Assembly (NCBI GenBank): GCA_943350635.1
Contig: CALRAI010000001.1
Location: 4,051-68,050 of the forward strand
Direction: 5' to 3'
From: Candidatus Uhrbacteria bacterium
Lineage (GTDB): Bacteria > Patescibacteriota > Patescibacteriia > UBA9934
DNA: 64,000 bases
Position 1 is the first letter of the stretch; the number at the start of each line of letters is the position of its first letter. Below the pieces are notes generated by a model that saw only the letters and a list, made by a program, of their open reading frames with translations, made no database searches and was not told the DNA's origin. A program made the position numbers and the translations under genes. Positions 15,902 to 40,516 of the stretch are shown here, piece after piece.

Positions 15902-16042
15902 CACAAAGCCCGCCGCTAGCCGACACCTTGCGGTGTCCATACCCCTTTCGAGATATGACCATACAAAGGAAGCTGAACGACGGGTTCAGTACTTTGTATG
16001 GGTTTACTGCCATACCTCACGGTTGATCCGAGAGGGTTAGGC
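15902..16042. ncRNA. conserved structured element, copy 1 (nested hairpin CCATACAAAG…CTGAACGACGGGTTCAG…CTTTGTATGG)
   Basis: About 140 nt, alignable to 40373-40516 with compensatory changes in the outer stem. Lies in a divergent intergenic region of the island. Strand and function unknown. Confidence 0.4.
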
Positions 16043-16098
16043 AAATTCAATTTTCGAACGTTGTTATTATGGAATTTTTCGGCTAACGTTGTCAAAGA

Positions 16099-17010
16099 GT
16101 GAGGTTTATCGAAAGCTGTTTCGCGAACAAAGAATGCGTATTTATGAAGAATGCAAAAATAGTAATTGATGATTATTCCATTAGCCTATACACATCTCAT
16201 CTTAAGAGAGGAAATTACCGTGTCGGGGAAGTGATGCAGATATTGCTCTTGAGAAGCGACTTTAATGATTTTATATTGCGGTTAGAGTTGAGTGGACTTA
16301 CCCAGGTGGTGCCAAGTTCCGAAAATGAAGACAGTTGGATACATAACGGCATAATTACGCATAAACGTGTCGATGGCTATCTAGCGATAATATTGCAAAC
16401 TGATTTCTTTAAAAATCGTACAGAAATTTGGTTAATGAACTTTACCTCCATCGCAAAAAGAATACTCATAGAGTCCTACGCACGAGGAAGTGCTATGAAA
16501 TTGAGTCACAATGCGGAAGAAAAAATTGTTATTTCAAGCGATGATATTAACTACCCGAATATTTTATATTCATTGATTGAGATAGATGACGGCTTTCGTA
16601 AGATTCTAGATACGAATAAATTTGAGCAGGAACCGGATATGATGCCCATTTTTATAGAGAATGGTCGATTTTTTGAAATCAGCATCAATGCTCAAGTTAC
16701 GAAACCAGAGCTTATAAGTTTTATCGAAAAAAACTGGAGTGAAATAGAAAGAGATGTAAGGGGACGAAATCCTTCAGAAAAGAAAGAGAGAGCATCAAGT
16801 TCTTCAAATTTCTTACGTGATATTAAAATACTTAATAAATATAATGATTTTAAGAATGAAGGTTTTAAAAATCCGGATGTAAAAGTATTTTCCTGGTTAT
16901 TAAAAGAGGATCAGATAGAAATTGAGCCGAATACTGTGCGAAAAATAGTATCGAATCTTAATAAATCAATAAGAATGTTAAATAGCGATTCTTTAAAGGA
17001 TAAAATCTGA
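16099..17010 (+). CDS. hypothetical protein
   Basis: 303-aa ORF with a GTG start (an ATG at 16144 is an alternative). No motif recognised. Confidence 0.45.
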   Translation: MRFIESCFANKECVFMKNAKIVIDDYSISLYTSHLKRGNYRVGEVMQILLLRSDFNDFILRLELSGLTQVVPSSENEDSWIHNGIITHKRVDGYLAIILQTDFFKNRTEIWLMNFTSIAKRILIESYARGSAMKLSHNAEEKIVISSDDINYPNILYSLIEIDDGFRKILDTNKFEQEPDMMPIFIENGRFFEISINAQVTKPELISFIEKNWSEIERDVRGRNPSEKKERASSSSNFLRDIKILNKYNDFKNEGFKNPDVKVFSWLLKEDQIEIEPNTVRKIVSNLNKSIRMLNSDSLKDKI

Positions 17011-17133
17011 TACTCAACATTTTGTGCTAAATAAAATCGGCTATCTTTTCACGATTTCGTGAATTAATCTGGCTGCTTAAATTCGAACGACGTTCTATTT
17101 TTATAAAAGTACTCTCTCAAAGTACTTTTAATT

Positions 17134-17403
17134 TTGTTTATGCGTATGCAAGCAATATCGACAAATGACACGTTTCCTTCCCGCGATTGGGTACTTATCG
17201 CAACCCTCTCCTCCCTCGGCTTCCCGATTGAAGCCGTGGAGCAAGACTCACAGGCTCGGACAATCTTTCACATACAGCGCTCCGACAGCCTGGACGACGT
17301 TATACAGCGATTCTGGAGGCGTGAGCTGCGTGTTGAGCCTCAGGAGTTCAACCAGCACATGAAGCTCGTGAAGGCTCGCATGTATGACGCTAAGATTTTC
17401 TAA
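17134..17403 (+). CDS. hypothetical small protein
   Basis: 89-aa ORF preceded by the palindrome AAAAGTACT-N7-AGTACTTTT at 17096-17121. Confidence 0.35.
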   Translation: MFMRMQAISTNDTFPSRDWVLIATLSSLGFPIEAVEQDSQARTIFHIQRSDSLDDVIQRFWRRELRVEPQEFNQHMKLVKARMYDAKIF

Positions 17404-17427
17404 GACATTCAAAATTAATGCGTATAT

Positions 17428-17979
17428 ATGGCGAGAAAAAGAATGCTTCACGCAAAGATCTGGGACAGCAATCAATTCAACTCATTAAAACCACTACTTC
17501 GTTTACTTTACATAGGTTTGGTCACTATCGCGGATGACTATGGCTGTTTTCGTGCAGAGGGCACGTTTCTCAGGCGAAAGCTGTTACATTCAGACAGGAT
17601 TAGCCCGGCACAAATTGATGCAATGTTGCAGAAAATTAACGAAGTTGGATTGATTGAATATCGTCAAACAGAATTCGGTTCCATCGGCATTCATCCGAAG
17701 TGGGACACGTATCAGAAGCTCCGTAAGGACATTGCTAGGTCTAGCGACTTTCCTGACCTCGACGTATACGCCATGGATCTGCCATGGCTACGTGACGTCA
17801 ACATAAGAGAAGACAAGATAAATAAAGAAAGCTCAGAATCAGGGGAAGAAAAGAGAATTGAAATTAGTGAAAGAGAACTTGCGCCGATCTTCTCCGGAAG
17901 AGAGCAGACAGAGCGGGCTCTGGCTGCATTCAAGAAGAAACAGAAAGAGAAACTGAATCCATTCTCTGATCTTCTATGA
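17428..17979 (+). CDS. hypothetical protein (possible winged-helix DNA-binding/replication-associated)
   Basis: ORF immediately upstream of the xis/int module. The assignment is speculative. Confidence 0.4.
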   Translation: MARKRMLHAKIWDSNQFNSLKPLLRLLYIGLVTIADDYGCFRAEGTFLRRKLLHSDRISPAQIDAMLQKINEVGLIEYRQTEFGSIGIHPKWDTYQKLRKDIARSSDFPDLDVYAMDLPWLRDVNIREDKINKESSESGEEKRIEISERELAPIFSGREQTERALAAFKKKQKEKLNPFSDLL

Positions 17980-18533
17980 GTAAAAACTCTTGTGACGATT
18001 ATCAGAAATTATCAGTGTATCGGCTTCGGGATTTTGGATGCTTTTCATACTCTTCTTCGCATGATCTCTCCTGGGGGAAAGGTGAAAATCGGAGCAGTAT
18101 CGGCCTCACCACCTTCCTTGAAGACGATCCTATAAGAATGAGGCTCAGCTATATCTACTCCAGCCGATACAGTGATCGAAAGCTATCGGTGGACGATGAT
18201 GTTCTACTATCAAAAACTCAATGTCATTTCGGTGGCGTTCGTTGGTGGATGCATTGCCCGGTGCTTCGTAATAGCCTGCCATGTAATCGACGTACCGCAA
18301 TTCTTTTCATGGTTGGTGGCCGATTTGGATGCAGAGATTGCCATGATCTTACCTATGAAAGCCGAAAGATCAGGCCATCGCTACGGCCGTATCTCTCACT
18401 TCTTATACCAATGACCCTCGATCAAAAGTATGCACGTTCCCGATACTGGAAAGGGCGAAAAACCAAGCGAACTCGAAGAATAGATGCAAAGTGGGATGCG
18501 TGGGAAGAACCAACGGGATTAATGAACTTCTAA
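17976..18533 (+). CDS. hypothetical Cys-rich (zinc-binding?) protein
   Basis: CHFGGVRWWMHCP…CNRR…CRDCHD cysteine/histidine cluster. Overlaps the upstream gene by 4 nt. Confidence 0.4.
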   Translation: MSKNSCDDYQKLSVYRLRDFGCFSYSSSHDLSWGKGENRSSIGLTTFLEDDPIRMRLSYIYSSRYSDRKLSVDDDVLLSKTQCHFGGVRWWMHCPVLRNSLPCNRRTAILFMVGGRFGCRDCHDLTYESRKIRPSLRPYLSLLIPMTLDQKYARSRYWKGRKTKRTRRIDAKWDAWEEPTGLMNF

Positions 18534-18614
18534 TTATTTCGATCGTGTAGAATGGGAGCGTTGCTCATTGAGGAAGAAATTCCTCCCTGGAACGTCGCTC
18601 CTTAACAACTAAAT

Positions 18615-18863
18615 ATGACCAAAGATGAAAATCTCGCTTCTGAGAGTAGTTTTCTGAATCCACTTGAACTCGCTGAACTGCTACGACTCTCGCGTGCTAG
18701 CGTGTACCGCCTCGTGGAAAGGCGAAAGATCAGCTTCCATCGATTACCGAGAGGATTGCGGTTTAGTAGAAGAGATATTGATGGCTACTTACAGAAATGC
18801 AGGGTTGAATCTTTGGAGGATGTATATGAGCGCGAGAAAAATAAGACAAAGCTGGTGGGTTGA
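18615..18863 (+). CDS. xis: excisionase/AlpA-family HTH DNA-binding protein
   Basis: LELAELLRLSRASVYRLVERRKISFHRLPRGLRFSRRDIDGYL is a typical Xis/AlpA HTH_17. Directly precedes the integrase. Confidence 0.6.
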   Translation: MTKDENLASESSFLNPLELAELLRLSRASVYRLVERRKISFHRLPRGLRFSRRDIDGYLQKCRVESLEDVYEREKNKTKLVG

Positions 18864-19953
18864 TTTCCGCTTCGGATTTCAACGCTACCGTATACGCAGT
18901 CCAGAATGCAGTCGTGCTGGAGCGCAAGCATATGAAGCAACGCTTCGAAAGATGCTCGCCGCTGGGGAGAGTATTGATGAAGGTCAGAAAAAGTTAGTGA
19001 AGTTTCAAGACTTTGCCGCCGATTGGTTCCGGGTGTATGTGATGAACAATAACAAGTTATCAGTACAGCTAACACAACGAGGCATACTCGATATCCATCT
19101 ACTCCCACACTTCGGTAAGTACGGACTCCCGGAGATCACATCACAGGTGGTTGAACGTTATAAGGCAAAGAAGACCAACGAAGGACTTGCGCCAAAGTCG
19201 ATTAACAATCAACTTGGAGTACTCCGACGATGCTTGCAGATTGCTATGGAATGGGGCTCGCTTGATAAGCTCCCTATGATCAAGATGCTCAAAACTCCAC
19301 CACCTGTCGTTATATTCCTCAACGAGGCTGAATGTAAGGCTCTCTTAGCGGATCATATGGAACCAATGGCGAATCTGATGATTCTGACTGCGTTGCGCAC
19401 TGGGATGCGTTTGGGTGAGCTGTGTGGCCTATCGTGGGAGGATATCGACTTCAAGAGCGGGATTCTTACCGTAAGGCATTCGTTCGTTCGGGGTGAAATG
19501 AACTCCCCCAAAAGTAATAAGATCCGACATATTCCGATAACAGCCGATTTAACCGAAGCTTTGAAGAAGAGCGCAAAACCCTGTGGCCTTGTCTTCCACA
19601 TCGATAAGAAGCCGATCACGGGCTATGCAGGCTCGGAAATACTCGGTCGTGCATGTATTCGTACGGGTATAAAACACATCGGTTGGCACAAACTCCGTCA
19701 TACCTTCGCTTCACAGCTTGTGGCGCGTGGAGCGAACCTGAGGGCTGTTCAAGAGCTCCTTGGGCACTCAACGATTCAAATGACGGAACGATACGTGCAT
19801 CTCGCTCCTTCGTCGCTCCGACAGGCGATGTCAGTATTGGAAGAAACACCAAAGGGAGAAAGTTTGGGCAACCCGTGGGCAACGGCACTTATTCAACAAG
19901 TACGTTATGAAGCGTTACCAAAGCTCAAAATGACCATGAATGTTGGGAAATAA
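18826..19953 (+). CDS. int: tyrosine-type site-specific integrase
   Basis: N-terminal SAM-like domain. Catalytic R…HKLRHTFAS…LGHSTIQMTERYVHL (R-H-R-Y). Adjacent to tRNA-Lys. Start taken at MSARKIRQSWW. Confidence 0.9.
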   Translation: MSARKIRQSWWVDFRFGFQRYRIRSPECSRAGAQAYEATLRKMLAAGESIDEGQKKLVKFQDFAADWFRVYVMNNNKLSVQLTQRGILDIHLLPHFGKYGLPEITSQVVERYKAKKTNEGLAPKSINNQLGVLRRCLQIAMEWGSLDKLPMIKMLKTPPPVVIFLNEAECKALLADHMEPMANLMILTALRTGMRLGELCGLSWEDIDFKSGILTVRHSFVRGEMNSPKSNKIRHIPITADLTEALKKSAKPCGLVFHIDKKPITGYAGSEILGRACIRTGIKHIGWHKLRHTFASQLVARGANLRAVQELLGHSTIQMTERYVHLAPSSLRQAMSVLEETPKGESLGNPWATALIQQVRYEALPKLKMTMNVGK

Positions 19954-19986
19954 AAAGATTCCGATGCCATTAACATCAGAATCTTT

Positions 19987-20061
19987 TGGTGCGCCGAGCG
20001 GGGATCGAACCCGCGACCACGAGCTTAAAAGGCTCTTGCTCTACCACTGAGCTACCAGCGC
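19987..20061 (-). tRNA. tRNA-Lys (anticodon TTT)
   Basis: Folded by hand as a cloverleaf: acceptor GCGCTGG/TCGGCGC, anticodon loop CTTTTAA, T-arm GGTTCGATCC, encoded CCA. Confidence 0.85.
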
Positions 20062-20085
20062 ATGGGAGAGCTTCCTCGTTTTGTC

Positions 20086-20197
20086 TATTTTCGGCTTGCC
20101 ACGTCGTTCGCGAACGACGTGGCTTGCTGCGTCGCACATTCGTTCAACGTACTAAGAAGTACGTCTCACGAATTGTGCTCCTGGCGCACCGAAACTA
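20086..20197 (-). promoter_or_regulatory. conserved upstream element (copy upstream of tRNA-Lys) with an extra 24-bp perfect palindrome
   Basis: Same GTTTCGGTGCGC…GAGACGTAC-N6-GTACGTTGA…GCAAGCCGAAAAT as the ybaB and HU copies. CCACGTCGTTCGCGAACGACGTGG is inserted at 20098-20121. Confidence 0.45.
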
Positions 20198-20278
20198 GCC
20201 TAAAACGCGAAAGCTCTCATATAAATCTCGAACAAATAACGTGCGCAGGATATCAGATTCGGGGGAATCTGTGAAGGT

Positions 20279-22900
20279 TTGATGGGGTATACTTCTGGAA
20301 TGTCTCCTCTTTTGCCGTTTCACGCTATTGAAAAGCAGGACGCGCTTTTGTCGTTGAAGTCCTCGACGCATGGTCTTACGAGTGGTGAAGCTCGGAAGCG
20401 ACTTACTAGCGCTGACGTTTGGCGTGTGGTTCCACCAAAACCGCAGAGTGTGTTGCGATTGCTATGGAAACAGTGTGAGAGCCCGTTCACGGTGATTTTG
20501 TGTTTTGCTATTGGGGTTTCGTGGTTTACAGGGGAATTGTTGGATGCTGCCATTACAACTGTGATTGTTGTTGCGGATATTGCATTGGGATTCTTTCAGG
20601 AGTTTCACGCAGACCGCGAATTCTTTGCCTTGCAGAATTATCTTCCAAAAAAGGTAACCGTTCGGCGGGACGATACGTCAATAACGATTCCCGTTGATGA
20701 AGTTGTTCCTGGCGACATTGCAATATTTCGTGCAGGGCAAAATATTGTGTGCGATGGGCGCATTTTGGAATCTACCAATTGTTTTGTGAGCGAAGCGGCA
20801 TTATCGGGAGAATCGGTTCCGGTGGAAAAAACTACGGAGATATGCATAGCCACTATTGGTATTTTTGGAAGAACAAATATGGTGTATGCCGGGACGGCTA
20901 TACTTTCCGGGCAGGTAACGGTGCTGGTTACTGCGCTTGGCTTGCAAACAGAATTTGGAAAGATTGGAACGCTCACCACGAGCGTGGTGGATCAGCAAAC
21001 CCCACTTGAGGGAGAGATGAATCGGGTTTCACGTTTTCTTACGTATGTGATCTTAGTTCTTGCGACAGTGGTGTTTATTGCTGCGCTTTTGCGTGGAGAT
21101 TCGATTATTCTTGCGTGTTCTCTGGCTGCGGCGCTTGCGATTGCCGCAATTCCGGAAGGCTTGCCGATGACGTTAACCGTATTGCTTTCTACGGCGATGA
21201 GGAGAATGTTTAAGCGTGGCGTGCTGGTTCGTCATTTGAATGCCACAGAAACGCTTGGCTGTGTGAATGTGCTTTGCGTAGACAAGACGGGAACCATGAC
21301 CACGGGGGTGATGTCTGTGGTGGAAGTCCGAGCTCCGCTAGTGGTGGTTTCCGACGAAGAGCTTCTGCAACATGAGCTTTTTAGAGCGTTGGGGTGTTTT
21401 GCAAGCGTCCATGCCCAAACGGGAGAAGCTGCCTTTGCTGGTGCCGCAACGGCTGATGCGGTAATGCAATATGTTCGTGGAATCGAGCACAAGCATTCAT
21501 TGAAAAACTCATCCTTAGAAAAACAAAAGGGTGATGTTGTCTCTACAATTCCATTCGATCCGACGTATCGGCTGAGTGCGTGTCTGCCTTCTGGAGCAGA
21601 TCGAACAGTGTACGTGATGGGTGCCCCGAACGTGTTACTTGAACGCTGTGCTACGAGCGAAGAAGAACGTGTGTCGATTGCGAATGCCATCGATGAGATG
21701 GCGGCTCGTGGATTGCGAGTGGTGATGATTTCTGCAATGGCTCTTGGCGTTCGTCCACTTTCCGTCGATGCAATTGTGGACGGTAGAGTTCTTGGATTGC
21801 TGGGGATCGAGGATCCGCTTCGTGAAAGCGTTCCTGGTGCAATTCTTCATGCAAGCAAGGCGGGGATTCGTACAATTATGATGACGGGAGACCATCCAGA
21901 AACCGCGCGGCACATTGCCGCGGAAGCATTTGGTTCAACGGCGATATCCGTGATGCTCGGCGCAGATTTCGCGGAACAATCAGCAACGGACCGTCTTCGA
22001 TCGGTAATGTCGGTGAACGTGTTTGCTCGCATGCTTCCAGAACACAAGCTCTTGGTGGTGGCCGCGCTTCATGCAAATAATCTCCGTGTTGCTATGACGG
22101 GCGACGGTGTAAACGACGCTCCGGCATTAAAGGCGGCCGACGTGGGAATTGCCGTTGGTCATGCGACGGAAGTCGCAAAGGAGTCGTCGGACATCGTGCT
22201 CCTTGATGGAGATTTCGGAAGTATTACGGCTGCAATTGCAGAGGGGCGAACCGTGTTTACGAATGCACGAAATGTAACAATCTTTTTGCTAGCGCTTGGT
22301 TTGGGTGAGACGATGGGCGTTCTTGGTGCGTTCTTGTTTCATTTGCCACCGTTCCTGTCTCCACTTCTTATTTTGTGGTTGAATGTGATTACTGACGGAA
22401 TCCCAGGGTTATTCTTTGCCTTTGAGGGAGCAGACAAAGATGCGATGACCGAGGCGCCACGTTCGCAGCATGACGGCTTGGTTTCTCGTGAGGTGCGTAC
22501 GTTCCTTGTTCTGTCTACTTCAATTCTCGCCTTGGTTCTCTGTGGAATGTTGTATATGTATCAGCAACTTGGCGAAGACTCGTCAACGATTCTTACAACG
22601 GGGTATCTTTTTATTGGCTTGCTTGGTGTGCTATTTCTCTTTGTTACCCGATCGCTTCGAGCATCGTTCTTTACGAATATGTTCTCAAAAACCCCACTGT
22701 GGCTTGGAGTTGTTCTCGGGTTTGTCTTCTTGTCGATTCCGCTCTTTGTTCCAATATTCCGATCGTTCTTCGGCCTCGTGCCGTTGTCATTATCGATCGT
22801 AAGAGTTGTGGTAATCGCGATCTGTTGCGTGCTTATTCCCCTTGATTTCGCAAAACGAAAACTGGTTCATCGTACGCCGGTCGTTGATTTGATATCATAG
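20279..22900 (+). CDS. P-type cation-transporting ATPase (type II, Ca2+/Mg2+-like)
   Basis: DKTGTMT phosphorylation site, TGDHPETA, TGDGVNDAPALKAADVGIA hinge, and about 10 TM helices. Confidence 0.9.
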   Translation: MMGYTSGMSPLLPFHAIEKQDALLSLKSSTHGLTSGEARKRLTSADVWRVVPPKPQSVLRLLWKQCESPFTVILCFAIGVSWFTGELLDAAITTVIVVADIALGFFQEFHADREFFALQNYLPKKVTVRRDDTSITIPVDEVVPGDIAIFRAGQNIVCDGRILESTNCFVSEAALSGESVPVEKTTEICIATIGIFGRTNMVYAGTAILSGQVTVLVTALGLQTEFGKIGTLTTSVVDQQTPLEGEMNRVSRFLTYVILVLATVVFIAALLRGDSIILACSLAAALAIAAIPEGLPMTLTVLLSTAMRRMFKRGVLVRHLNATETLGCVNVLCVDKTGTMTTGVMSVVEVRAPLVVVSDEELLQHELFRALGCFASVHAQTGEAAFAGAATADAVMQYVRGIEHKHSLKNSSLEKQKGDVVSTIPFDPTYRLSACLPSGADRTVYVMGAPNVLLERCATSEEERVSIANAIDEMAARGLRVVMISAMALGVRPLSVDAIVDGRVLGLLGIEDPLRESVPGAILHASKAGIRTIMMTGDHPETARHIAAEAFGSTAISVMLGADFAEQSATDRLRSVMSVNVFARMLPEHKLLVVAALHANNLRVAMTGDGVNDAPALKAADVGIAVGHATEVAKESSDIVLLDGDFGSITAAIAEGRTVFTNARNVTIFLLALGLGETMGVLGAFLFHLPPFLSPLLILWLNVITDGIPGLFFAFEGADKDAMTEAPRSQHDGLVSREVRTFLVLSTSILALVLCGMLYMYQQLGEDSSTILTTGYLFIGLLGVLFLFVTRSLRASFFTNMFSKTPLWLGVVLGFVFLSIPLFVPIFRSFFGLVPLSLSIVRVVVIAICCVLIPLDFAKRKLVHRTPVVDLIS

Positions 22901-22906
22901 CCCTAT

Positions 22907-24367
22907 ATGGATTTATCAAGCATCCACAATTTTCAAGACGCCGTGGTAACCGTGATGGGATTAGGGCGCTACAAACGGGGGAGCGGCATGGGCGCAACCA
23001 AATGGTTGGTGCGACATGGAGCGCAGACGGTGATTACGGATTTGAAGAATGCGGAAGAACTGCATGAATCCGTCACGATGATTATGGATTGGTATCGACG
23101 ATACCGGGAACTGTACCCAGATCGTACGCTGTATCAGCCAGTATTTGTGCTGGGGGAGCATCGAAAAGATGATTTTATTGGTGTGGAATGTGTGGTGCAG
23201 AATCCTGGCGTGCCGAGTGAATCGGAATACATCGTGGCCGCCAAGGAACAACACGTGCCAATTGAATCCGACGTTAGCCTCTTCTTCCGCTTTTATCAGC
23301 ATCCCATTATTGCGGTGACGGGAACAAAGGGAAAAACCACATCAACGTTATTGCTTGGGGAAATGCTCAAGCGCAAGGACGAGAAAGCGGTAACAGCGGG
23401 AAATATTAAAGTGTCGCCACTCGAACATCTTGATGAGCTCATCGAAGAACCGAATGCAATCCCGGTGGTGCTCGAGCTTTCGTCGTGGATGTTAGAATCG
23501 TTGCCGCAAGCATTTACCGATCTGAAGCGCGGACCAGCGATCGCTATTTTGACGAATGTGTACCCGGATCACCTCGATCGATACCCATCCTTCGAAGCGT
23601 ACACGGCAAGCAAGCGCATTATCTTTGAACATCAATCACCGGATCAATTCACGCTGCTGAATGCAGATCATGATTTGGTGCGCTCGATGGAACCGTTGGT
23701 GAAAGGAAAGCTCTTCTGGTTCTCCAAAACGCCTCGCACAGAAAACGGATGTTATTACAAAGACGGCAACGTGGTGTTCCGTCGCGACGGTGTGGAAACG
23801 GTTATTCTTCCAGTTGCCGACGTTGCGCTGAAAGGCGATCACAACATCGAAAATATTTTGTCGGCTGCGTGTGGCGCAATGTTGGCAGATGTTGTGGTGG
23901 GGGACATTGCCGATGTGCTTCGGCATTTTGAGGGAGTAACGGACAGGCAAGAGATGGTACGCGAAGTAGATGAAATTACGTACATCAACGATACTGCCGC
24001 TACTGGGCCGGATGCCGTTACTGCCGCGCTCAAGCGATTTAATACGGAGGGAAAGAAGGAAATTGTGCTGCTCGCCGGTGGTGTGAATAAAAAGCTTGCA
24101 TACACAGCATTGGGGGAGGACATTGTAACGGCGTGTAAGGCGGTGTTCTTGTTCCCGGGGGACGCATCGGATTTGCTGGCAACGGCAATCCACGATCGTG
24201 TGCCAGTAACACGGGTGCAGAGCATGAAAGAAGCGGTACAGGGTGCTCGTGCAGTCGCGGTTCGCGGGGATACGGTATTGCTTTCTCCTGGCGCGGCAAG
24301 TTTCAACCTCTTCCGCAACGAATTTGAACGCGGGGAACAGTTTCGTGAGGAAGTGAGAAATTTGTAA
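22907..24367 (+). CDS. murD: UDP-N-acetylmuramoylalanine--D-glutamate ligase
   Basis: N-terminal Rossmann motif (VTVMGLGRYKRGSG), P-loop VTGTKGKTTST, GDHNIEN, and a Mur ligase C-domain. Confidence 0.8.
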   Translation: MDLSSIHNFQDAVVTVMGLGRYKRGSGMGATKWLVRHGAQTVITDLKNAEELHESVTMIMDWYRRYRELYPDRTLYQPVFVLGEHRKDDFIGVECVVQNPGVPSESEYIVAAKEQHVPIESDVSLFFRFYQHPIIAVTGTKGKTTSTLLLGEMLKRKDEKAVTAGNIKVSPLEHLDELIEEPNAIPVVLELSSWMLESLPQAFTDLKRGPAIAILTNVYPDHLDRYPSFEAYTASKRIIFEHQSPDQFTLLNADHDLVRSMEPLVKGKLFWFSKTPRTENGCYYKDGNVVFRRDGVETVILPVADVALKGDHNIENILSAACGAMLADVVVGDIADVLRHFEGVTDRQEMVREVDEITYINDTAATGPDAVTAALKRFNTEGKKEIVLLAGGVNKKLAYTALGEDIVTACKAVFLFPGDASDLLATAIHDRVPVTRVQSMKEAVQGARAVAVRGDTVLLSPGAASFNLFRNEFERGEQFREEVRNL

Positions 24368-24373
24368 TCGCCC

Positions 24374-26175: not shown

Positions 26176-26183
26176 CTGCATCT

Positions 26184-27481: not shown

Positions 27482-27512
27482 CAAAAAGTCCCCGAGAGAA
27501 TCGAGGACGTTT

Positions 27513-27588: not shown

Positions 27589-27604
27589 GAAAATGGATGT
27601 TTCA

Positions 27605-28864: not shown

Positions 28865-28879
28865 GCTATACTTCACTCT

Positions 28880-29563: not shown

Positions 29564-29565
29564 TT

Positions 29566-30477: not shown

Positions 30478-30546
30478 AGAGCCTGATGCTTTGAGCGTGT
30501 TGGGCGTTACGAAGATTGATGGGTTCGGGTGTCTCGAATGTGCTCG

Positions 30547-30590
30547 TGTAAGACAATGTAAGACACTGACTTACACAAGATTGTAAGCAC
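30547..30590. promoter_or_regulatory. iteron/operator-like array of TGTAAG(A/C) half-sites
   Basis: TGTAAGACA (x2, 10-bp spacing), inverted CTTACA, then TTGTAAGCA. Immediately upstream of the GC-rich insert. Confidence 0.35.
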
Positions 30591-30668
30591 CCCCTCACTC
30601 CCGCTCAACCCTTCAAAAGAATCAGTTTCTGTGCTACCTTCGTTCCGCCAATATCGGCAGGAGTTCCC

Positions 30669-31289: not shown

Positions 31290-31333
31290 CCACGATCGGC
31301 AATCAGCTCAGCACAACACCCACGAAAACACGA

Positions 31334-31367
31334 CGCCCTGCCAACTCTTTCGAGCTGACAGGGCGTT
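31334..31367. terminator. GC-rich hairpin terminator (bidirectional)
   Basis: CGCCCTG-N17-CAGGGCG followed by TTT. Lies between convergent genes. Confidence 0.5.
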
Positions 31368-31403
31368 TGCGTGCGTACTGCGGTCACCGTGTCGAACAGT
31401 GAG

Positions 31404-32318: not shown

Positions 32319-32467
32319 GTGAAGATCTCCGGGGATTGGGGAAGCGAACGGGGGTGGTGAACAAAGAGCAATCAGTAACAAAATATGATAGCACAATTTG
32401 TGCCTTTTGTAAAGGGGAATGTACCGGTAAAATAGCGAATATTAGCGAAAAAAGATGAAGATTTTCC

Positions 32468-33397: not shown

Positions 33398-33406
33398 ACC
33401 TCGTGA

Positions 33407-33798
33407 CTATTTAAACGATGGACACGGCGTCGTAACGAACACAGAACCAGCAAGGAGGCTGCCTTCTGGCCAAACAAGTTGAGTGCTGTCAAAAACAAGG
33501 CGCGTACCGTCCACGAGCACCACGGCGCCGTCCTCCAAAGTTCCCGGACCGGTTGATGGCGGTTCAATATCCTTACCATCGCGTCGTTCAAGAATGGTAA
33601 TAGATGCATTCGGTGAAGTGTCCTCTATAGCGACATATGTTTGTATGCCGTTCTGCTCCAATACGAAGCATCGTTGAACGACAGAGGAGCTGTGTTGCCA
33701 CAAAGGAATGATAATGAAAAGGAGAACGGTAACAAAAGATACAGCGACGACTCCATACAGAACGGGATGTGCCTTGATGCGGTTGAGAAAGGTAGTCA
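33407..33798 (-). CDS. membrane-anchored hypothetical protein
   Basis: N-terminal TM (VLYGVVAVSFVTVLLFIIIPLW) followed by a small outside domain. Start at MTTFLN. Confidence 0.4.
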
Positions 33799-33861
33799 TA
33801 TAGCGAGAATTGTGCAGAAGAGGGGATGAGTCTTTTATGGATATATGCGTACATAATAGCA

Positions 33862-33898
33862 CTATGGTCCGGGAAATGTATGGTAATTCGCGTGTGGC
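33862..33898. repeat. degenerate att-like repeat (tRNA-Gln 3'-end-like plus GGTAATTCGCGTGTGGCGA)
   Basis: TGGTCCGGGAAATGTATGGTAATTCGCGTGTGGCGA versus TGGTTCCGGGACATGGATGGTAATTCGCGTGTGGCGA at 35121. Confidence 0.4.
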
Positions 33899-33901
33899 GA
33901 A

Positions 33902-34744
33902 ATGATACGTGTGTACACAGGACAAATATGGAATAAAGATAGTATAATTATACATATGCCTATTGAATCACAAGAGAATTCGCAAAACAGTGTCGAGGTG
34001 AAGGACGATGGATATAACTACGAGCGATGGGAAGTTCGACTTGGCGGGCTTTTTACTCAACTTGGTATTGTTCGTGCGTTGGCTGAGGGAGATTTTTCTG
34101 ACGAAGAAAAAGAGCGAATTATTAGGGCAAATGCTGATGAATGGAAGGATATTGTTGCGAAGTTTGGGGAGAACGATCGAGTGGTGCTTCAGAAAGCAAT
34201 AGATGAACTCGGTACGCACACAAAAATCGCCGCACGAGAAATTTGTGACAAACTTGCTGAAGCGATTCGTTTTGCGGGGAAGATGATTCGTCAAACGGCA
34301 CCGTCCGTACAGCAACGCGATGCTATCGATGCTGAGCGAGAACTTGAGGGAGATGCTGCTCATCCTACGCATGAATGGCTGAAAGGAATGGAGGGGGCAT
34401 ACCTTGCGTCACATCTTTCAGATATTACTGCAGAAATAGAGCATAATCATGGAGAAGCGCACATGCTGTATTACGAAATCGGCTCTATTCAGCGCATTGG
34501 TGTACTTATCGAAAACCTACGAGAAAAGATTGATGAAGGAAGGATTGATATTGGAGATCGTGGAGCGGAAGATTGCGCCGATGCAATTCTTGCTGCACGG
34601 AATATGGTGGTGCGCGCAATTATCGCACCGCTTCCGTCTAAACGCTGTCCAGAAATCGATCTTACAAAAATTGATATCGCGATGTTGGATGAAGTTGCAG
34701 ACATTGGCGGCTGGCTTGGCGTGGTAAAAGGGTGGAGTGCATAG
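33902..34744 (+). CDS. hypothetical protein
   Basis: 280-aa acidic, helical protein. No motif recognised. Confidence 0.45.
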   Translation: MIRVYTGQIWNKDSIIIHMPIESQENSQNSVEVKDDGYNYERWEVRLGGLFTQLGIVRALAEGDFSDEEKERIIRANADEWKDIVAKFGENDRVVLQKAIDELGTHTKIAAREICDKLAEAIRFAGKMIRQTAPSVQQRDAIDAERELEGDAAHPTHEWLKGMEGAYLASHLSDITAEIEHNHGEAHMLYYEIGSIQRIGVLIENLREKIDEGRIDIGDRGAEDCADAILAARNMVVRAIIAPLPSKRCPEIDLTKIDIAMLDEVADIGGWLGVVKGWSA

Positions 34745-34756
34745 TGCGAGGTATTA

Positions 34757-35057
34757 TGAAAACGCTGTTTTCATTCCGGGCGAAAGTATGGCTGTATTCC
34801 GGAATGGCGGCGTGGCATTTTGTTACCTTGCCTAAGGATATTGCTCACGACATTGCGGAGCGGTTCTCTCCGCTAAAAAAAAGGGTGGGGATCGATTCGG
34901 GTTGAAATGACCCTTGGCGAAACACGGTGGAAAACATCAATTTTTCCGGACAAAAAAAGAGGAAGCTATGTGCTTCCGCTTAAAGCAAGTATACGAAAGA
35001 AAGAACACGTTTTTGCAGAGGACACAGTGGCACTCGAGTTGAAAATCATTCTATAAC
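34757..35057 (+). pseudogene. DUF1905-family gene disrupted by a frameshift at an A8 homopolymer
   Basis: MKTLFSFRAKVWLYSGMAAWHFVTLPKDIAHDI… continues in another frame after A8 (34872-34879) as …TLGETRWKTSIFPDKKRGSYVLPLKASIRKK…VALELKII. Together these match the DUF1905 pattern. Confidence 0.5.
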
Positions 35058-35120
35058 CATCCTTTCCTACATTCTTTAATAAAACCAACAAAAATCCCCA
35101 GCGTGTGCTGAGGATTTTTG

Positions 35121-35138
35121 TGGTTCCGGGACATGGAT
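35121..35138. repeat. 18-bp exact copy of the tRNA-Gln 3' end (att-like)
   Basis: TGGTTCCGGGACATGGAT is identical to 43494-43511 (tRNA-Gln 3' end). Confidence 0.6.
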
Positions 35139-35228
35139 GGTAATTCGCGTGTGGCGAGCGAGCTCGCCGCGCGAATGACATCCGTATCCCGTACGCCGCG
35201 GTGCGGCTGGCCAGCGTGCGCTGGCGAA

Positions 35229-35266
35229 CCATAAAAATACCAGCCGTGGGGCTGGTATTTTTATGG
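35229..35266. terminator. perfect 17-bp-arm palindrome (bidirectional terminator-like)
   Basis: CCATAAAAATACCAGCC-GTGG-GGCTGGTATTTTTATGG. Confidence 0.55.
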
Positions 35267-35620
35267 TTCTGCGGCCCGGTCTAGATTGAAGCCTTTAAGG
35301 GGACTTTGGGGCACCCTTCTCCCTGCTCACCAACCCTGTTCCGGTCGCATAGAACTGGAGAGTGAAACTGGCAAAAAATGGAATATAGGCCGGAGGGTAA
35401 AATGAGACAAATGAGACACTACATGGGCTGTTTCAAACGACTGTCTCACACACTAACTTTTCGGCTTATGTTCGCCTAATTCTGACGGTAAAGTGGTTTA
35501 TTTTTGACTGTCTCATCTTCCAATTGAATAAAGTCGAATTTCGCCAGTCTCTGCGTCCTGCGCCACGTTGTCGATTAGGCGCTTCATTCCGTCGAGATAG
35601 ATAGTTGGCACTCACTGATC

Positions 35621-36574
35621 CTATTTAAATGGCTTTTGAAGTTTTGATTGCACAACTTCGCTTATTTTATGGGCATCCCCGTGGCTCAACATGCCAAGAT
35701 ACGAGGATACGGATTCCTCTTTGCTCTCTGTTCCAAGATTATTCATCATTCTGCGTTTGGTGGTCGTACGAAGAACCCGATGATGCGGAAAATGCACCCA
35801 GCCTAGGAAATCAATTCCCGAGGCGATTGTGGCAATGGAGACTTTGTTTGGGTGCAACGCGAGGTGTAACCGTGACTCTAAAAATTCAGCGATCTGCGGC
35901 AGGAGATGTTCTAAATATTCTCTGCCTTCATGCAGGACGACAAAATCGTCGGCGTAGCGGATGTAATGTGCTGCCTTCAAATTGCGCTTTATGAAGTGAT
36001 CAAACACGTTCATGTAGATATTGACCAAAAGTTGGCTCGTAAGGTTACCGAGCGGAAGTCCGACGCCGGGCCTGCCGTCCGTGTGAAAACTCCCGATCAC
36101 TTCCGCGAGGAGCCAAAGAATATCTGTGTCGTTGACATGCCTTTTGATGACGTCGAGGAGAATCGCATGATCGATGTTGGCAAAGAACTTTCGTATGTCG
36201 CATTTCAACACCCAAGCGGTACGGGTGTGGTTTTTGGAAACCTTGGCGGCAAATTCTCGAAGACGATTGATTGCGCGATGCGTACCCCTCCCCTCGCGAC
36301 AGGAGTACGAATCAAAAATGAATTTACGATCGAAGAATGGATATAGGATTCGATAGATTGCGTGATGCAGGAGCCGATCACGGACGGTCGCTTTATGAAT
36401 ATCCCTTGGCTTCGGGTCGTTAATCTTAAAGGCATGGTATCCGCCGTGCCGGTAGGACCTATTGGCGAGGTCGCCGTGCAACGCGACGAGATTATCCATG
36501 AGGCTTGCCGCGAAGAGGGCAACGTCTTCCCGTTTCCTTTTTCCAGACAAAAACTCCTGCCAGGCGGCAAGCAA
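35621..36574 (-). CDS. diversity-generating retroelement reverse transcriptase
   Basis: RT motifs including YADDFVVL, and the DGR-specific LGNLTSQLLVNIY (GxxxSQ in place of group II QGxxxSP). 317 aa. TR/VR pair nearby. Confidence 0.85.
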   Translation of the reverse strand: MLAAWQEFLSGKRKREDVALFAASLMDNLVALHGDLANRSYRHGGYHAFKINDPKPRDIHKATVRDRLLHHAIYRILYPFFDRKFIFDSYSCREGRGTHRAINRLREFAAKVSKNHTRTAWVLKCDIRKFFANIDHAILLDVIKRHVNDTDILWLLAEVIGSFHTDGRPGVGLPLGNLTSQLLVNIYMNVFDHFIKRNLKAAHYIRYADDFVVLHEGREYLEHLLPQIAEFLESRLHLALHPNKVSIATIASGIDFLGWVHFPHHRVLRTTTKRRMMNNLGTESKEESVSSYLGMLSHGDAHKISEVVQSKLQKPFK

Positions 36575-36622
36575 ATTTTCAACAGAAATGATATCCTGAT
36601 ACGTACTATGGAGCCGCGCCCT

Positions 36623-36667
<45 letters not shown>

Positions 36668-36708
36668 CCGGAAGCGCGTCGATTCTCCAGCGCGTCAAAG
36701 AGGGATAT

Positions 36709-37032
36709 TTGGTTTGGATGAACATTGCGCCGCATATTGCAAAGGGTGCGCGTTTTACGATTGGCGCCAGGATTGAAAGTAAGTTTCTCGACCTGTTGGA
36801 GTTGAGTTACGCCGCCTATTTTACCGACAAAGAAAAGAAGGTTGCAAAGATTGCCGAGTGTGTCTTCGTGCTCGATACGCTCAAGTTTCTCATCACCACA
36901 GCATGGGAAGGAAGACTGATAGCCAATAAGCAGTGCGAGGACGTTGCCAAAAAGCTGGACGAGATCGGCAAGATGTTCGGGGGCTGGAAGAAGAATCTCG
37001 AAAACCCTGAACGAAAAAACCGCGCCATGTAA
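36709..37032 (+). CDS. Avd-like four-helix-bundle protein (accessory variability determinant / 23S rRNA IVS protein family)
   Basis: …KFLDLLELSYAAY…LKFLITTAWEGRLI…EDVAKKLDEIGKMFGGW resembles the C-terminal two-thirds of TIGR02436-type proteins. TTG start in the ORF track (an ATG lies at 36718). Opposite strand to RT, TR and target. Confidence 0.45.
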   Translation: MVWMNIAPHIAKGARFTIGARIESKFLDLLELSYAAYFTDKEKKVAKIAECVFVLDTLKFLITTAWEGRLIANKQCEDVAKKLDEIGKMFGGWKKNLENPERKNRAM

Positions 37033-37046
37033 GCGCGGAATCAAGC

Positions 37047-37183
37047 ACTTTCGAAGACGGAAGACGAACTCATTGTTCGCATTCCACTTGTTCGTCGGCT
37101 TCGCCCAATTGTTGTTGAGCCACGACCCATCGTCATTGCGTTCCACGTTGAAGACGTTCGGGTTGCCGTCCGAGTCGGATTGC
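37047..37183 (-). repeat. DGR template repeat (TR)
   Basis: About 135 nt that aligns to 37507-37640. Every one of the ~17 mismatches is an A in TR (coding strand) versus C/G/T/A-change in VR. AAC/AAT-rich (NNNWAKPTNKWNANNEF). Confidence 0.85.
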
Positions 37184-37482
37184 ATGGCGTGCCGCCCTTG
37201 CCACTGCCCGCCTATCTAGGAAAGAGGTCGAGCTGTATTTTATGCGTGATCGAAAATCACCAAGCGCGCCATACCAAGTACTTCATTTTTGTTTGGACAC
37301 TCTACGCATCCTCCGAAAGAAGCCGTAGCCACCTTCGTTCTCAACACGCAGGTGCCGAAAGGGTCTCGATAAGCCGTGGCCGACCGATGTAACCAATCTG
37401 CACTCCAGAATACCAAAAATTTTCCGATCCGCCTACGGCGGAAAGCATCAAAGGGTCAAAGAAACAAAGTTTCAAGAAGTAA

Positions 37483-39693
37483 CTAAGGCCTCAAGGGTTT
37501 CTTGCGAAGACGGAAGACGAACTCATAGCTCGCATCCCACACGTCCGCCGGCTTCGCCCAATCGTCGCGGAGCCACGACCCATCGTCATTGCGTCCCACG
37601 TAGAAGACGCCCGGGCTGCCGCCCGAGTCGGAAATTTGCTTCATGCCAACGTACACATATTCGTTCATTGGTTGATTTGTGTACTGCAAACGGAATTGCG
37701 GACCGACCTCTGGCGGACAAAGCTCGAGACCCAGCTCTTCAGCTCGGGCGTAAATTTGATCTGTCGTTGCACCGCTTGGGAAACCCAAATCTTCTACGCG
37801 AAGGCGGATAAGCTTCGCTTCCTCTGGAGATTTGAGTTTCCACTTTTTCCAATCTGGTTGCTTTGGGTCGGGCTCGCGAAGGGAACGCTTGAAGTCATCG
37901 TGTTCCATCATTGATTTGGCGTATCCGTAAATTTGGAATCCGCTACGTTCAAGAAGATTTTCAAGTTCCTGTTCGTCCTTGCCACCGATCTCAATGCTTT
38001 GACGGCGAATGCGGCTCTCAGGGAATTTGGTGTAAACATGCTCTACGCCTTCCGGTAGCTGATCGAAAATGCCAGGCTCAAGCTTGCCGACGTAGGCTTT
38101 AGTCGATTCGTTGATCTGATCAACCGAACGGGCAATTTGGCTTTCATCGCACTCAAAGACGACAAGCATGTCCTCATCAGGATTACGCTCACGGTGCAGT
38201 TCGACAACACGAGGATCCTTGTCGTAGCCGAAACCCTCGATAGGAGCATTGATTTCGTAGAGGAAAAGAAGGTCTTGTTTTGTGAGCGGCTTACCGGCAA
38301 CGGTCTTTTGTTCGACGAGGGTCAAGAGTCTCATGTCGCCGGCTTTCTTCTCGTAAGCCGTGCCATCTGGAAATTCTTTCATCTTTGCTCCGACAACTGG
38401 CGCGATATGCGGATCGAGGTTCTGATCGGGCGCGATACCACGAACCTCGGCAATCTTATCGCCTTCCATACGAATAGCGGCACGGGGAATGCTGCTTGCG
38501 CCGGATTCATCTTGCGAATAGTAAACATAAAAGTCGCCACGGGAGAGCTGGGACTTTGCCACCTCTTCTCCGGCGGTACACCAACCGGTCTTGTGGCGCT
38601 CGATGGATTGGACGAGCAGGGTTGGCTCGGAGCCTTGGGCATACTTCACCCATTGTCCCGTAGTGTTATGCAAGAGCGTTTCGCTGGTCGGGATGAGCTT
38701 GGCAAATTCAAGGGCATAGAGTCTGGCAAAATCCTTGGCATCCAAAGCCGATTGAACTTCCGGTTCGAGATTTCGTTCGTCGACAGGCGTTGCAATTTCA
38801 AACGTTGACGGATCAAACGGAGCCATGTCAAGTTCCGCGATGATTCGTTCGCGGTCAACGGGCGCGGCTGGGTTTTGTTTCTTGGCTTCGGCAATCTTTT
38901 GTCCGATAACAAGCTGGCGTTCCTTGTTGTGCTTTTTTTCTGCTCGTTCCAGCTCCTGCCGTGACGCTGCAAGCTGTTCCTTGTAAATACGATCATGTTC
39001 AACGTGATCGCGAACCTTTCCAAGAACTGCCTGGTCCAATTCGGGGAACGGATTCATGGTCTCTTCGTCCCTGGAGGGAAAGGTTTTGGTGTCCTTATCA
39101 AAACTCGAGAGTCCGGTGACGCTTCTCATTGCCCAGTACCTGAACCAGTCTGGGTAGGCGGCTCCGGCATCATCGGTTGCAAGATAGTCGATCCACTTGT
39201 CCAGTGATCGCTTTTGGTCTTCGATCTTGGCGACGATTTCCTCGGCCATCTGCTTTTGTTCGTTCGGAAGTTCCTGAAGCTCTTCCCCGATGTCTGATCC
39301 TTTGGCGATAGCCTGTACCGCGCGCGTAATCTGATCGTGGACATCATCGGGAATGTCCGTGTCGCCATGTCCTAGGGCACGCGCCTGTTTTTGTTGGTGC
39401 CCCAAATATTCCTCGGTGGCGACGTCAGGTTTCACGATCAGGGCTTCGTGCATGAAGCGCTTCATCATGGAGAGGTTGCGTGCCTTGCGGTCAAAGCTCT
39501 CGTGGCCCTTGATCGGCGGCGGATTGAGCACCACGTCCAGGCGGTCTAGATATGCCTGTATACGTTCCGCTGGGATATTCCGAACACGCTCGCGTGTTCG
39601 AGATTCTTTGCGCGCAACAGCCCTCTCCGCTTCCGGCGATTTCTCAAGCTGGTATTTCTGTCGAAGAAATTCGGGGTTTGATCCTTTTTCCAT
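37483..39693 (-). CDS. DGR target protein with C-terminal C-type lectin/FGE-sulfatase-like variable domain
   Basis: 737-aa soluble protein with no signal peptide. C-terminus fits the CLec VR pattern (G-x-x-x-GSW…W…FVFRL) and contains the VR. Start taken at MEKGSN. Confidence 0.75.
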   Translation of the reverse strand: MEKGSNPEFLRQKYQLEKSPEAERAVARKESRTRERVRNIPAERIQAYLDRLDVVLNPPPIKGHESFDRKARNLSMMKRFMHEALIVKPDVATEEYLGHQQKQARALGHGDTDIPDDVHDQITRAVQAIAKGSDIGEELQELPNEQKQMAEEIVAKIEDQKRSLDKWIDYLATDDAGAAYPDWFRYWAMRSVTGLSSFDKDTKTFPSRDEETMNPFPELDQAVLGKVRDHVEHDRIYKEQLAASRQELERAEKKHNKERQLVIGQKIAEAKKQNPAAPVDRERIIAELDMAPFDPSTFEIATPVDERNLEPEVQSALDAKDFARLYALEFAKLIPTSETLLHNTTGQWVKYAQGSEPTLLVQSIERHKTGWCTAGEEVAKSQLSRGDFYVYYSQDESGASSIPRAAIRMEGDKIAEVRGIAPDQNLDPHIAPVVGAKMKEFPDGTAYEKKAGDMRLLTLVEQKTVAGKPLTKQDLLFLYEINAPIEGFGYDKDPRVVELHRERNPDEDMLVVFECDESQIARSVDQINESTKAYVGKLEPGIFDQLPEGVEHVYTKFPESRIRRQSIEIGGKDEQELENLLERSGFQIYGYAKSMMEHDDFKRSLREPDPKQPDWKKWKLKSPEEAKLIRLRVEDLGFPSGATTDQIYARAEELGLELCPPEVGPQFRLQYTNQPMNEYVYVGMKQISDSGGSPGVFYVGRNDDGSWLRDDWAKPADVWDASYEFVFRLRKKPLRP
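37507..37640 (-). repeat. DGR variable repeat (VR) at the 3' end of the target gene
   Basis: Encodes …GRNDDGSWLRDDWAKPADVWDASYEFVFRLRK. Differs from TR only at TR-adenine positions. Confidence 0.85.
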
Positions 39694-39833
39694 ATGCGGG
39701 AATGGTAGCAAAAACAGCCCAGAATTGGTAGCGCACGTCCACACCTATTTAGGTGGCCTTGAGTTACTACATCTTTTTTGCCCCATTCAAAACGCCACCC
39801 CAGATGGATGGCGTTTTATCTTGTAATTTCTCC

Positions 39834-40313
39834 CTACTTCGTCACGAGCGTGCAGTCCTTCACGAGCACGTTCCCAAGAAGTCCGTTCACGCGTCCTTGC
39901 ATGGTCACCTTGGTGCCCTCTGCCAATGCGCTTGCTTCCGCGATCGCATCGTCGTCGAGCATGCATTGCACGGAGCCGATAATGTCGCCGGTCTTAAGCG
40001 AGATGTATGGCTTGTCGAGAATGTCTTTGCCGATGTTGTCGACTGTACCGCTCACTTCCACGAGCTTACCCTTGTAGGTATTATCGGCGGAAATTTCGTT
40101 CGCCTTATAGTCGGAATAAAGCTTCGTCGACGTGACGACGATCGCTTCTTCCGCCGGCGCGGTATTGGCCTGATTCGATCCTGACGAACTGGTACCCGAC
40201 GAACCACTACCACCGCCAGATGAGGCGATGACAATGACGACGATAATGGCGAGGAGCCAGAACCACCACTTTTTATAAATCGGACGCTTCACCTTGGTTG
40301 GATTGTCACTCAT
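39834..40313 (-). CDS. membrane-anchored OB-fold (tRNA_anti-like/BOF) protein
   Basis: KKWWFWLLAIIVVIVI TM helix, Gly/Ser linker, and C-terminal …YKGKLVEVSGTVDNI… fold. Start at MSDNPTK. Confidence 0.45.
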   Translation of the reverse strand: MSDNPTKVKRPIYKKWWFWLLAIIVVIVIASSGGGSGSSGTSSSGSNQANTAPAEEAIVVTSTKLYSDYKANEISADNTYKGKLVEVSGTVDNIGKDILDKPYISLKTGDIIGSVQCMLDDDAIAEASALAEGTKVTMQGRVNGLLGNVLVKDCTLVTK

Positions 40314-40372
40314 ACGAATATGAATGTTAATAATAAGCGAACTTTCGAGTGATGCTGGGTGAGGCTTTATAG

Positions 40373-40516
40373 CACAAAGCCCGCCGCCAGCATTGTGACT
40401 TTCATCACCGCACCCCTTTCGGAGTACGACCAACCAAGGCTTTGCTGAACGACGGGTTCAGTGCCTTGGTTGGGTTTAGCACCATGCCATGGTCGATGTC
40501 CGATCATGGTTTAGGC
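40373..40516. ncRNA. conserved structured element, copy 2
   Basis: Aligns with 15902-16042. Inner hairpin CTGAACGACGGGTTCAG is identical. Outer stem CCAACCAAGGC/GCCTTGGTTGG covaries with CCATACAAAG/CTTTGTATGG in copy 1. Confidence 0.4.

Follow-up and report, generated by a model that had tools for sequence, protein, structure and literature searches.

The stretch of DNA that concerns us here—the window, 64,000 nucleotides (nt) of contig CALRAI010000001.1 from Candidatus Uhrbacteria bacterium—carries two short structured elements, copies A and B, and the questions that we put to them are easily stated: what are they, and what might they do for the genes that follow them? That the window holds two homologous elements of ~140 nt had been claimed earlier from the sequence alone (the original prediction), and both are present where they were placed, with a pairwise alignment in agreement. 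The same prediction could match them to no known RNA family, and that statement was wrong because an Rfam scan calls both copies full-length LOOT RNA (RF03000, gathering threshold 46.4), each covering model positions 1–121 on the minus strand: copy A at 16043..15922 (−) with 91.5 bits and copy B at 40517..40395 (−) with 77.7 bits. Minus is also the functional strand of both elements, a correction to the earlier account. In other words, these are additional members of a catalogued family and not a new class of RNA. A LOOT-specific pattern finds exactly these two sites in the window, with 0.00 expected, and nested minimum free energy (MFE) folds of the two leaders have z-scores of −4.3 and −5.1.

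Copy A (15922..16043, −) lies between divergently oriented open reading frames (ORFs), 14977–15873 (−) and 16099–17010 (+), inside an 11-kb island. The attachment (att) sites of this island are marked by a 30-nt stretch, the 3′ end of tRNA-Lys, that is duplicated exactly (9013–9042 and 19984–20013), and the island carries a tyrosine integrase (18664–19953, beside the tRNA), HTH_17, DUF5659, and LOOT copy A itself. Just upstream of the RNA is a promoter-like site, TTGACA-18-CATAAT (16066..16095, −; 11/12 matches), from which the start would fall ~16 nt before the Rfam model. On the other side, the ATG of the next gene comes 28 nt past the tail of the element (X′, to which we return below), and this gene (14977..15873, −) encodes a 298-aa DUF3267-type putative membrane zincin peptidase with an HEWAH motif (PF11667, 3.4e-08).

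Copy B (40395..40517, −), like copy A and as the original prediction had it, lies between divergent ORFs, here 39834–40313 (−) and 40607–41386 (+). A weak promoter-like sequence, TTGAGT-17-TACTAT at 40536–40564, was picked out by eye only, the promoter scan having called none there, and a conserved ACAACUU leader comes after it. The gene 3′ of copy B (39834..40313, −) encodes a 159-aa membrane-anchored OB-fold (tRNA_anti-like) protein (PF12869, 1.2e-27), and it is the first gene of a minus-strand run that continues into a complete-looking diversity-generating retroelement (DGR) on the same strand (35621..39744, −), which is recognized by its reverse transcriptase domain together with a template repeat/variable repeat (TR/VR) pair; copy B, that is, heads the DGR operon. 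The DGR comprises a 753-aa target ORF (37483–39744, −), a reverse transcriptase (35621–36574, −; RVT_1, 1.5e-25), and a 132-nt repeat of 86% identity whose two members are TR (37048–37179, −) and VR (37501–37632, −). On the other flank of copy B are a ParB-methylase gene, for which an exact-protein look-up found nothing on record, and tRNA-Gln. Both settings had been described as mobile regions; copy A is indeed inside the tRNA-Lys island and copy B does adjoin a DGR, but no integrase was found in element B, which is best called a putative mobile element.

What was already known of LOOT? The motif reportedly derives from the 2017 survey by Weinberg et al., and it entered Rfam with release 14; it is not known to have been assigned a host organism. 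Rfam gives its type as “Gene; sRNA.” Published accounts show it as a “metagenomic-based RNA” (PMC7779021, the Rfam 14 paper), count it among the families whose structure was refined by R-scape (PMC11701678), and treat its cross-covariation as extreme, with ~43 base pairs spread over six helices (PMC7657543). No function is given in the literature that we searched.

The RNA of copy A reads as P1 (with a CCUAAC/UAUGG internal loop), P1a, P3, P4 (GAAA loop), and P5 (GCAA loop). In a pairwise alignment, copies A and B have CACAAAGCCCGCCGC, CCCCTTTCG, and CTGAACGACGGGTTCAG in common, and the 10–11-bp enclosing stem, P3, is fully compensatory, CCATACAAAG/CTTTGTATGG versus CCAACCAAGGC/GCCTTGGTTGG, just as the original prediction had seen. 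The P3 5′ strand of copy A, CCAUACAAAG (15992..16001, −), pairs with 15959–15968 (CUUUGUAUGG) at −11.9 kcal/mol, and that of copy B, CCAACCAAGGC (40463..40473, −), pairs with 40430–40440 (GCCUUGGUUGG) at −19.5 kcal/mol. The selection on secondary structure that had been proposed from this pair of copies is seen family-wide. When a MAFFT alignment of 48 sequences, not fitted to any structure, is scored against a supplied one, 90.4% of the cells assigned to pairs are paired versus 68.3% after shuffling (0/500 as high) and 35–46% when the partners are slid, and 44 of the 52 pairs change on both sides. Each helix contributes: P1, P1a, P3, P4, and P5 have 83–96% of their cells paired and are each supported by compensatory changes, with both-sided changes in 2/4, 5/7, 8/10, 8/8, and 6/6 of their pairs, respectively.

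Two motifs in this alignment do not vary at all: the GAAA loop of P4 and the CCUAAx/yAUGG internal loop of P1 are found in 48/48 sequences. We take the internal loop to resemble the 11-nt GAAA-tetraloop receptor. Its variable positions, the x of CCUAAx and the y of yAUGG (16036/16014 in copy A and 40510/40486 in copy B), vary together in most sequences, CCUAAC going with UAUGG in copy A and CCUAAA with CAUGG in copy B (there are a few exceptions, such as L067 and L069), and this joint change suggests a conserved non-Watson–Crick pair within the receptor-like loop.

The Rfam model of 121 positions ends at P5, and a large helix is therefore missing from it. This helix, X:X′, is a long-range one of 15–17 bp: its 5′ strand, X, is the ~20 nt at the apex of the P3 hairpin, and its 3′ strand, X′, is the ~20 nt past P5, a U-rich run included. 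In the 48-sequence alignment, both-sided changes occur in 15 of its 17 pairs, with 89.9% of its cells paired. In a comparison that needs no alignment, the pairing energy of X is −25.3 kcal/mol with its own tail and −14.9 kcal/mol with foreign tails, and the own tail ranks 0–2 of 30 in 97/118 loci. For copy A, X (15970..15991, −; core CCCGUCG, 15978–15984) and X′ (GGCUAGCGGCGGGCUUUGUGU, 15901..15921, −; core CGGCGGG, 15909–15915), which lies beyond the end of the Rfam model at 15922, form a duplex of −21.4 kcal/mol; for copy B, X (ACUGAACCCGUCGUUCAGCAA, 40442..40462, −) and X′ (AUGCUGGCGGCGGGCUUUGUG, 40373..40393, −) have a duplex energy of −22.9 kcal/mol. The original prediction had met both strands of this helix and called one of them (X) an identical inner hairpin and the other (X′, CACAAAGCCCGCCGC) a shared flank. 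The sequence is indeed common to both copies, but the hairpin was probably a misreading: folded locally in the register seen in the window, X has 64.7% of its cells paired versus 63.7% when shuffled, with no support from covariation. An apical P3 hairpin of 6–8 bp (the Rfam consensus) does form in the MFE folds of both copies, and weak local hairpins of X could form in most sequences (mean of −5.5 kcal/mol and mean z of −2.3 versus shuffles); pairing of these bases with the tail is much the stronger.

To see where else LOOT lives, a pattern drawn from its invariant positions was run over a genome set with a single representative for each species, which gave at least 120 stretches; three (L107, L112, and L116) were set aside as false matches on reading, leaving 117 LOOT-like loci among the matches listed. 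With two contigs from IMG/VR and the two window copies, these make up the family-context set of 121. All 18 loci from the candidate phyla radiation (CPR) that were rescanned with Rfam reach the gathering score, at 65–100 bits. The loci retrieved include no close relative of the window. By the record titles of the relatives listed, nearly all are metagenome-assembled genomes (MAGs) labelled Patescibacteria/CPR, with Saccharibacteria, Paceibacterota/Parcubacteria, Microgenomates, Doudnabacteria, Gracilibacteria, and others among the lineages. A few bear the labels Gammaproteobacteria (L035, L054, L066, L075, and L080, with others), Bdellovibrionales (L049 and L060), or Pacearchaeota (L061), and every neighbouring match is CPR; either mislabelling of the bins or true transfer may account for them. 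Among viral contigs, nhmmer and a stricter pattern find LOOT in only two from IMG/VR (L007 and L027), a looser pattern having given 24 matches of which all the others were rejected as chance by the same two means, and blastn of copy A against a phage collection and a plasmid collection gave no match. As in the window, one Doudnabacteria MAG has two copies at separate loci, on two contigs (L030 and L077), and a Saccharibacteria MAG (L084) has a second LOOT-like start, GCCTAAAC...GGCATGGCATCAAAT, ~100 nt 3′ of its first copy, a sequence arrangement that suggests tandem elements.

The surroundings of these relatives repeat a pattern. Hexamers that resemble a −10 box cluster so as to end 16–30 nt before CCUAA in 74 of 117 loci, 42 of which also have a −35 box, and a conserved ACAAYU motif follows the promoter-like site family-wide; the pile-up and the motif suggest that LOOT stands at the extreme 5′ end of its transcript. 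(ACAAYU itself does not pair with the 3′ region, with energies of −8.39 kcal/mol for own and −8.44 kcal/mol for foreign partners, and it doubled as a negative control for the permutations.) The next ORF, its start called by a simple rule of the longest ORF from ATG only, is co-oriented in 94/100 loci and mostly starts 10–50 nt past the element, and hence, there is no room for a separate promoter. LOOT thus lies between a promoter-like site and a co-oriented ORF, close to the start of the latter.

The genes that the RNA precedes are diverse; among their products are DNA methylases, a superinfection-immunity protein, a nuclease, peptidoglycan-binding and Ig-like proteins, and zinc ribbons. We found no conserved downstream gene family, the largest cluster of immediately downstream co-oriented ORFs having 3 members and the commonest Pfam family, N6_N4_Mtase, occurring in 5 of the 75 such ORFs that were scanned. 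The downstream genes do share a tendency, in that 60% begin with an N-terminal hydrophobic segment versus 3–7% of the divergent upstream genes. The upstream genes, which are mostly divergent, include large serine recombinases (27 loci), ParB-methylases (13), DUF5659 (12), XRE repressors (7), terminase large subunits (6), and Rep proteins (4), and 60/121 loci have at least one hallmark of a mobile element within four ORFs. A general link between LOOT and DGRs was considered and dropped: a reverse transcriptase is downstream only at copy B and L126, and that of L126 is on the opposite strand. Taken as a whole, the sequence context suggests that LOOT is the leader of cargo genes in integrated mobile elements.

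We favour, at a probability of about one-half, the reading that LOOT is a cis-acting 5′ leader able to switch conformation. Each copy would be transcribed on the minus strand, from the promoter just before it, and would form the 5′ leader of the gene that follows: copy A would lead the DUF3267 membrane peptidase gene within the tRNA-Lys island, and copy B would lead the gene for the membrane-anchored OB-fold protein, then the DGR target gene, and then the reverse transcriptase. The original prediction had listed a cis-regulator among several possible roles, and this one is the best supported; another on its list, a DNA origin or transfer structure, is unlikely.

Might LOOT instead be a stand-alone, trans-acting small RNA (sRNA) that has its own promoter and ends at the U-rich run, the downstream gene being reached by read-through or transcribed independently? 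We consider this unlikely. It would agree with the Rfam type and with the promoter-like site directly upstream; the G/C-rich X′ strand, moreover, runs into CUUUGUGUUUU-like sequence, and three-quarters of the loci have no complementarity to the downstream start region. Against this, the distances already given leave no room for a second promoter before the co-oriented ORFs, and the U-rich run is not the bare tail of a terminator but a part of the covarying helix (columns 60/160 have 23 double changes, and columns 62–64/156–158 are paired). A scan for intrinsic terminators called none at copy B and only hairpins of 5–7 bp at copy A, none of which is X:X′, and X:X′ encloses ~50–55 nt in the window copies, unlike the short-loop hairpin and unpaired U run of a terminator. 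Nor is any conserved single-stranded seed region apparent.

The case for a switch, as opposed to a leader that is simply there, comes from a second set of complementarities. In 25/114 loci (~22%), where 1.6 are expected, the P3 3′ strand and the region downstream of it in the same locus can form a duplex of −14 kcal/mol or better, the target ending 0–5 nt before the ATG. Seen from the other strand, a 16-mer made of AAAnCC and the P3 5′ strand recurs with up to 4 mismatches in 27/114 loci versus 3 in the control, and all but two of the recurrences are 46–80 nt past the P4 loop, typically ending 0–6 nt before the ATG. In about a third of the loci, the tail, too, has an alternative partner, X2, directly 3′ of X′: X′:X2 is at −16 kcal/mol or better in 38/112, with 17.9 expected. 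These two pairings, one at the start region and one at the tail, correlate across loci (Spearman 0.44, p 1e-6). We also considered the repeat of the P3 strand before the ATG as an att core or target-site duplication and rejected it: it would delimit only the 3′ half of the RNA, it tracks RNA complementarity, and in L103, the downstream copy is a better complement to the P3 3′ strand than is the P3 5′ strand itself.

In copy B, all of these pairings are available. Its X2, AUAAAGCCUCACCCAGCAUC (40351..40370, −), is an alternative local partner of X′ at −24.3 kcal/mol and forms in the MFE fold; its third copy of the P3 5′ strand, UCCAACCAAGGUG (40290..40302, −), lies in codons 4–8 of the downstream ORF and pairs with the P3 3′ strand at −18.9 kcal/mol. 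The P3 10-mer occurs 3 times here, with 0.09 expected. The two states of copy B sum to −42.4 and −43.2 kcal/mol, and they are, that is, nearly isoenergetic. Copy A has neither the X2 partner nor the copy at the start region.

How would such a leader work? The scaffold would be a compact one, of P1 with its receptor-like loop, P1a, the long P3, P4 with GAAA, P5 with GNRA, and X:X′ in addition. In the LOOT fold, with P3 and X:X′ formed, the downstream translation start region would be left free. In the alternative fold, X′ would pair with X2, and the 3′ strand of P3, now released, would close the ribosome-binding or start region. Folding kinetics, Mg2+ or temperature, a protein, or a ligand are candidate triggers. 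The sequences show family membership, leader position, promoter-like sites, covariation of all the helices, X:X′ among them, and the alternative complementarities in copy B and ~22% of the relatives. That the two folds interconvert in vivo, the direction in which they regulate, and the trigger we infer.

Several points weigh against this reading, and they should be taken together. The conserved nucleotides are nearly all structural ones (the tetraloop, the receptor, and the A's of the junctions), with no obvious pocket for a ligand, and the Rfam type is that of an sRNA gene. The leader transcript and the ORF starts are predictions. In copy A and about three-quarters of the relatives, there is no detectable downstream partner for the P3 3′ strand, and because most loci have no copy in the start region, a switch at the ribosome-binding site (RBS) is not a universal function of the family. 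Even in the subset with a partner, the LOOT fold averages 9.5 kcal/mol more stable by crude duplex sums. Helix geometry, finally, implies that X:X′ would be sterically strained when formed on a loop that P3 closes with short linkers; such strain suggests that P3 and the full X:X′ may alternate or that X:X′ may form between molecules. A fuller version of the favoured reading we hold more tentatively, at somewhat less than even odds: that LOOT is a lineage-specific riboregulator of Patescibacteria/CPR mobile elements, a bistable pseudoknotted 5′ leader gating horizontally acquired genes for envelope proteins, methylases, and, in the window, a DGR-diversified surface protein, with the variable P3 and X sequences acting as element-specific addresses.

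The last two of these difficulties bear on another reading, to which we give little credence: LOOT could be a constitutive structural module that does not switch, either one that stabilises cargo mRNAs at their 5′ end or sets the context of their translation, or an RNA that assembles with itself, X in one molecule pairing with X′ in the next. Pairing in trans would relieve the strain of a 17-bp helix between loop and tail, the conserved positions are mostly tertiary motifs (the GAAA loop, the receptor-like loop, and the GNRA loop), and the LOOT fold is more stable than its alternatives in most loci. What a module of this kind leaves unexplained is the matched RBS copies, the X2 partners, and their co-occurrence.

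Phages offer a further precedent in the c4 antisense RNA of P1 and P7, reportedly described by Citron and Schuster in 1990. A c4-like RNA would be cut from the leader, and its P3 3′ strand would act on the start of the first gene, in cis and also on incoming related elements, to confer immunity; the P3 5′ strand would be an internal mimic, after the fashion of a1b1, a′b′, and a2b2 in phage P1. c4 resembles LOOT in having a co-transcribed target, in the trio of mimic, antisense, and RBS target, and in belonging to a temperate element, and three copies of a specificity sequence are just what copy B and ~22% of the loci have. The P3 sequences vary between elements as immunity specificities would, and XRE repressors and integrases adjoin the element. 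We nevertheless find the idea improbable. The c4 covariance models have no match in the window at the gathering score, and there is no match between the two RNAs in sequence or structure; LOOT is twice the size of c4 and has tertiary-structure motifs; its antisense strand is buried in an 11-bp stem and not displayed in loops; the target is missing in most loci, copy A included; and the genes that follow encode envelope or methylase cargo instead of antirepressors.

The remaining possibility, that LOOT works as DNA (a site for attachment or recombination, a single-strand origin, or the terminus of an insertion sequence or miniature inverted-repeat transposable element common to both elements), has in its favour several internal inverted repeats and a place beside recombinase and Rep genes in mobile elements, but it is very improbable because of the many G–U pairs that could form on one strand only (UG:34 in columns 70/151 and GU:27 in columns 116/138), the GNRA loops and receptor-like motif that belong to RNA, and the fixed orientation relative to the downstream ORF, to which one may add that there are no terminal inverted repeats or target duplications, that similarity between the copies and to their relatives stops at the borders of the RNA itself (~15897–16054 and 40370–40489, a unit of ~155 nt), and that ~4 kb separates copy A, which is inside its island, from the nearer att repeat (19984–20013), the tRNA-Lys att repeats at 9013 and 19984 being the only ones that bound the island. 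A shared end of an insertion sequence or miniature element, which the original prediction had named as something that would refute it, does not account for the similarity because only the RNA itself is alike.

If LOOT is indeed a bistable leader, what does it most resemble? Translational riboswitches and other bistable leaders, such as the fold-back of hok mRNA, likewise have mutually exclusive helices with one over the start region, and in them, as in LOOT, the competing pairings covary together; LOOT differs in that its downstream genes are unrelated to each other and in that no ligand, ligand pocket, or toxin ORF is known for it. The put RNAs of phage HK022 are also structured RNAs that come first in an operon of a temperate element, right behind its promoter, but these cis-acting antiterminators have ~70 nt and two stem–loops, without the pseudoknot or tetraloop receptor of LOOT. 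GOLLD and ROOL are, like LOOT, orphan RNAs with elaborate folds that accompany prophages and often lie close to tRNA genes; each is several times the size of LOOT, is not a leader directly before ORFs, and has no similarity to it.

The closest comparison remains the Rfam model, which the window copies match at full length and with which they have P1, P1a, P3, P4-GAAA, and P5-GNRA in common, together with an apical hairpin in their MFE folds. Relative to that model and to the literature searched, three things are additional: the 3′ tail with its covarying helix to the P3 apex, the conserved promoter with the ACAAYU leader, and the assignment to Patescibacteria mobile elements and to 5′ leaders. 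LOOT gains from this a host lineage (by the labels of the MAGs), a niche in integrated mobile elements before mostly envelope-protein cargo, and a fuller structure with alternative pairings, and the Rfam model should grow by ~25 nt at its 3′ end. What had been an orphan motif becomes a concrete hypothesis for how CPR mobile elements, a DGR operon included, may control their cargo. Were it true, the accessory genome of a major uncultured radiation would have a regulatory RNA class of its own, one whose Rfam model omits a fifth of the molecule.

The window has other repeated features. An element of ~140 nt with three conserved blocks occurs at 4111–4224, 20070–20212, and 49295–49408 with 73–83% identity, one copy lying between tRNA-Lys and a cation-ATPase ORF at 20279; it has no Rfam match at the gathering score in a scan of the window and could be another regulatory RNA or leader. 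There is a direct repeat of ~130 nt (3069–3197 and 4260–4387, 1.19 kb apart) with 82–88% identity, and two similar terminator-like hairpins, AAAAAACTCCCCGATTGCTCGGGGAGTTTTTTGA, stand at 48936–48984 and 50753–50801, after consecutive plus-strand genes.

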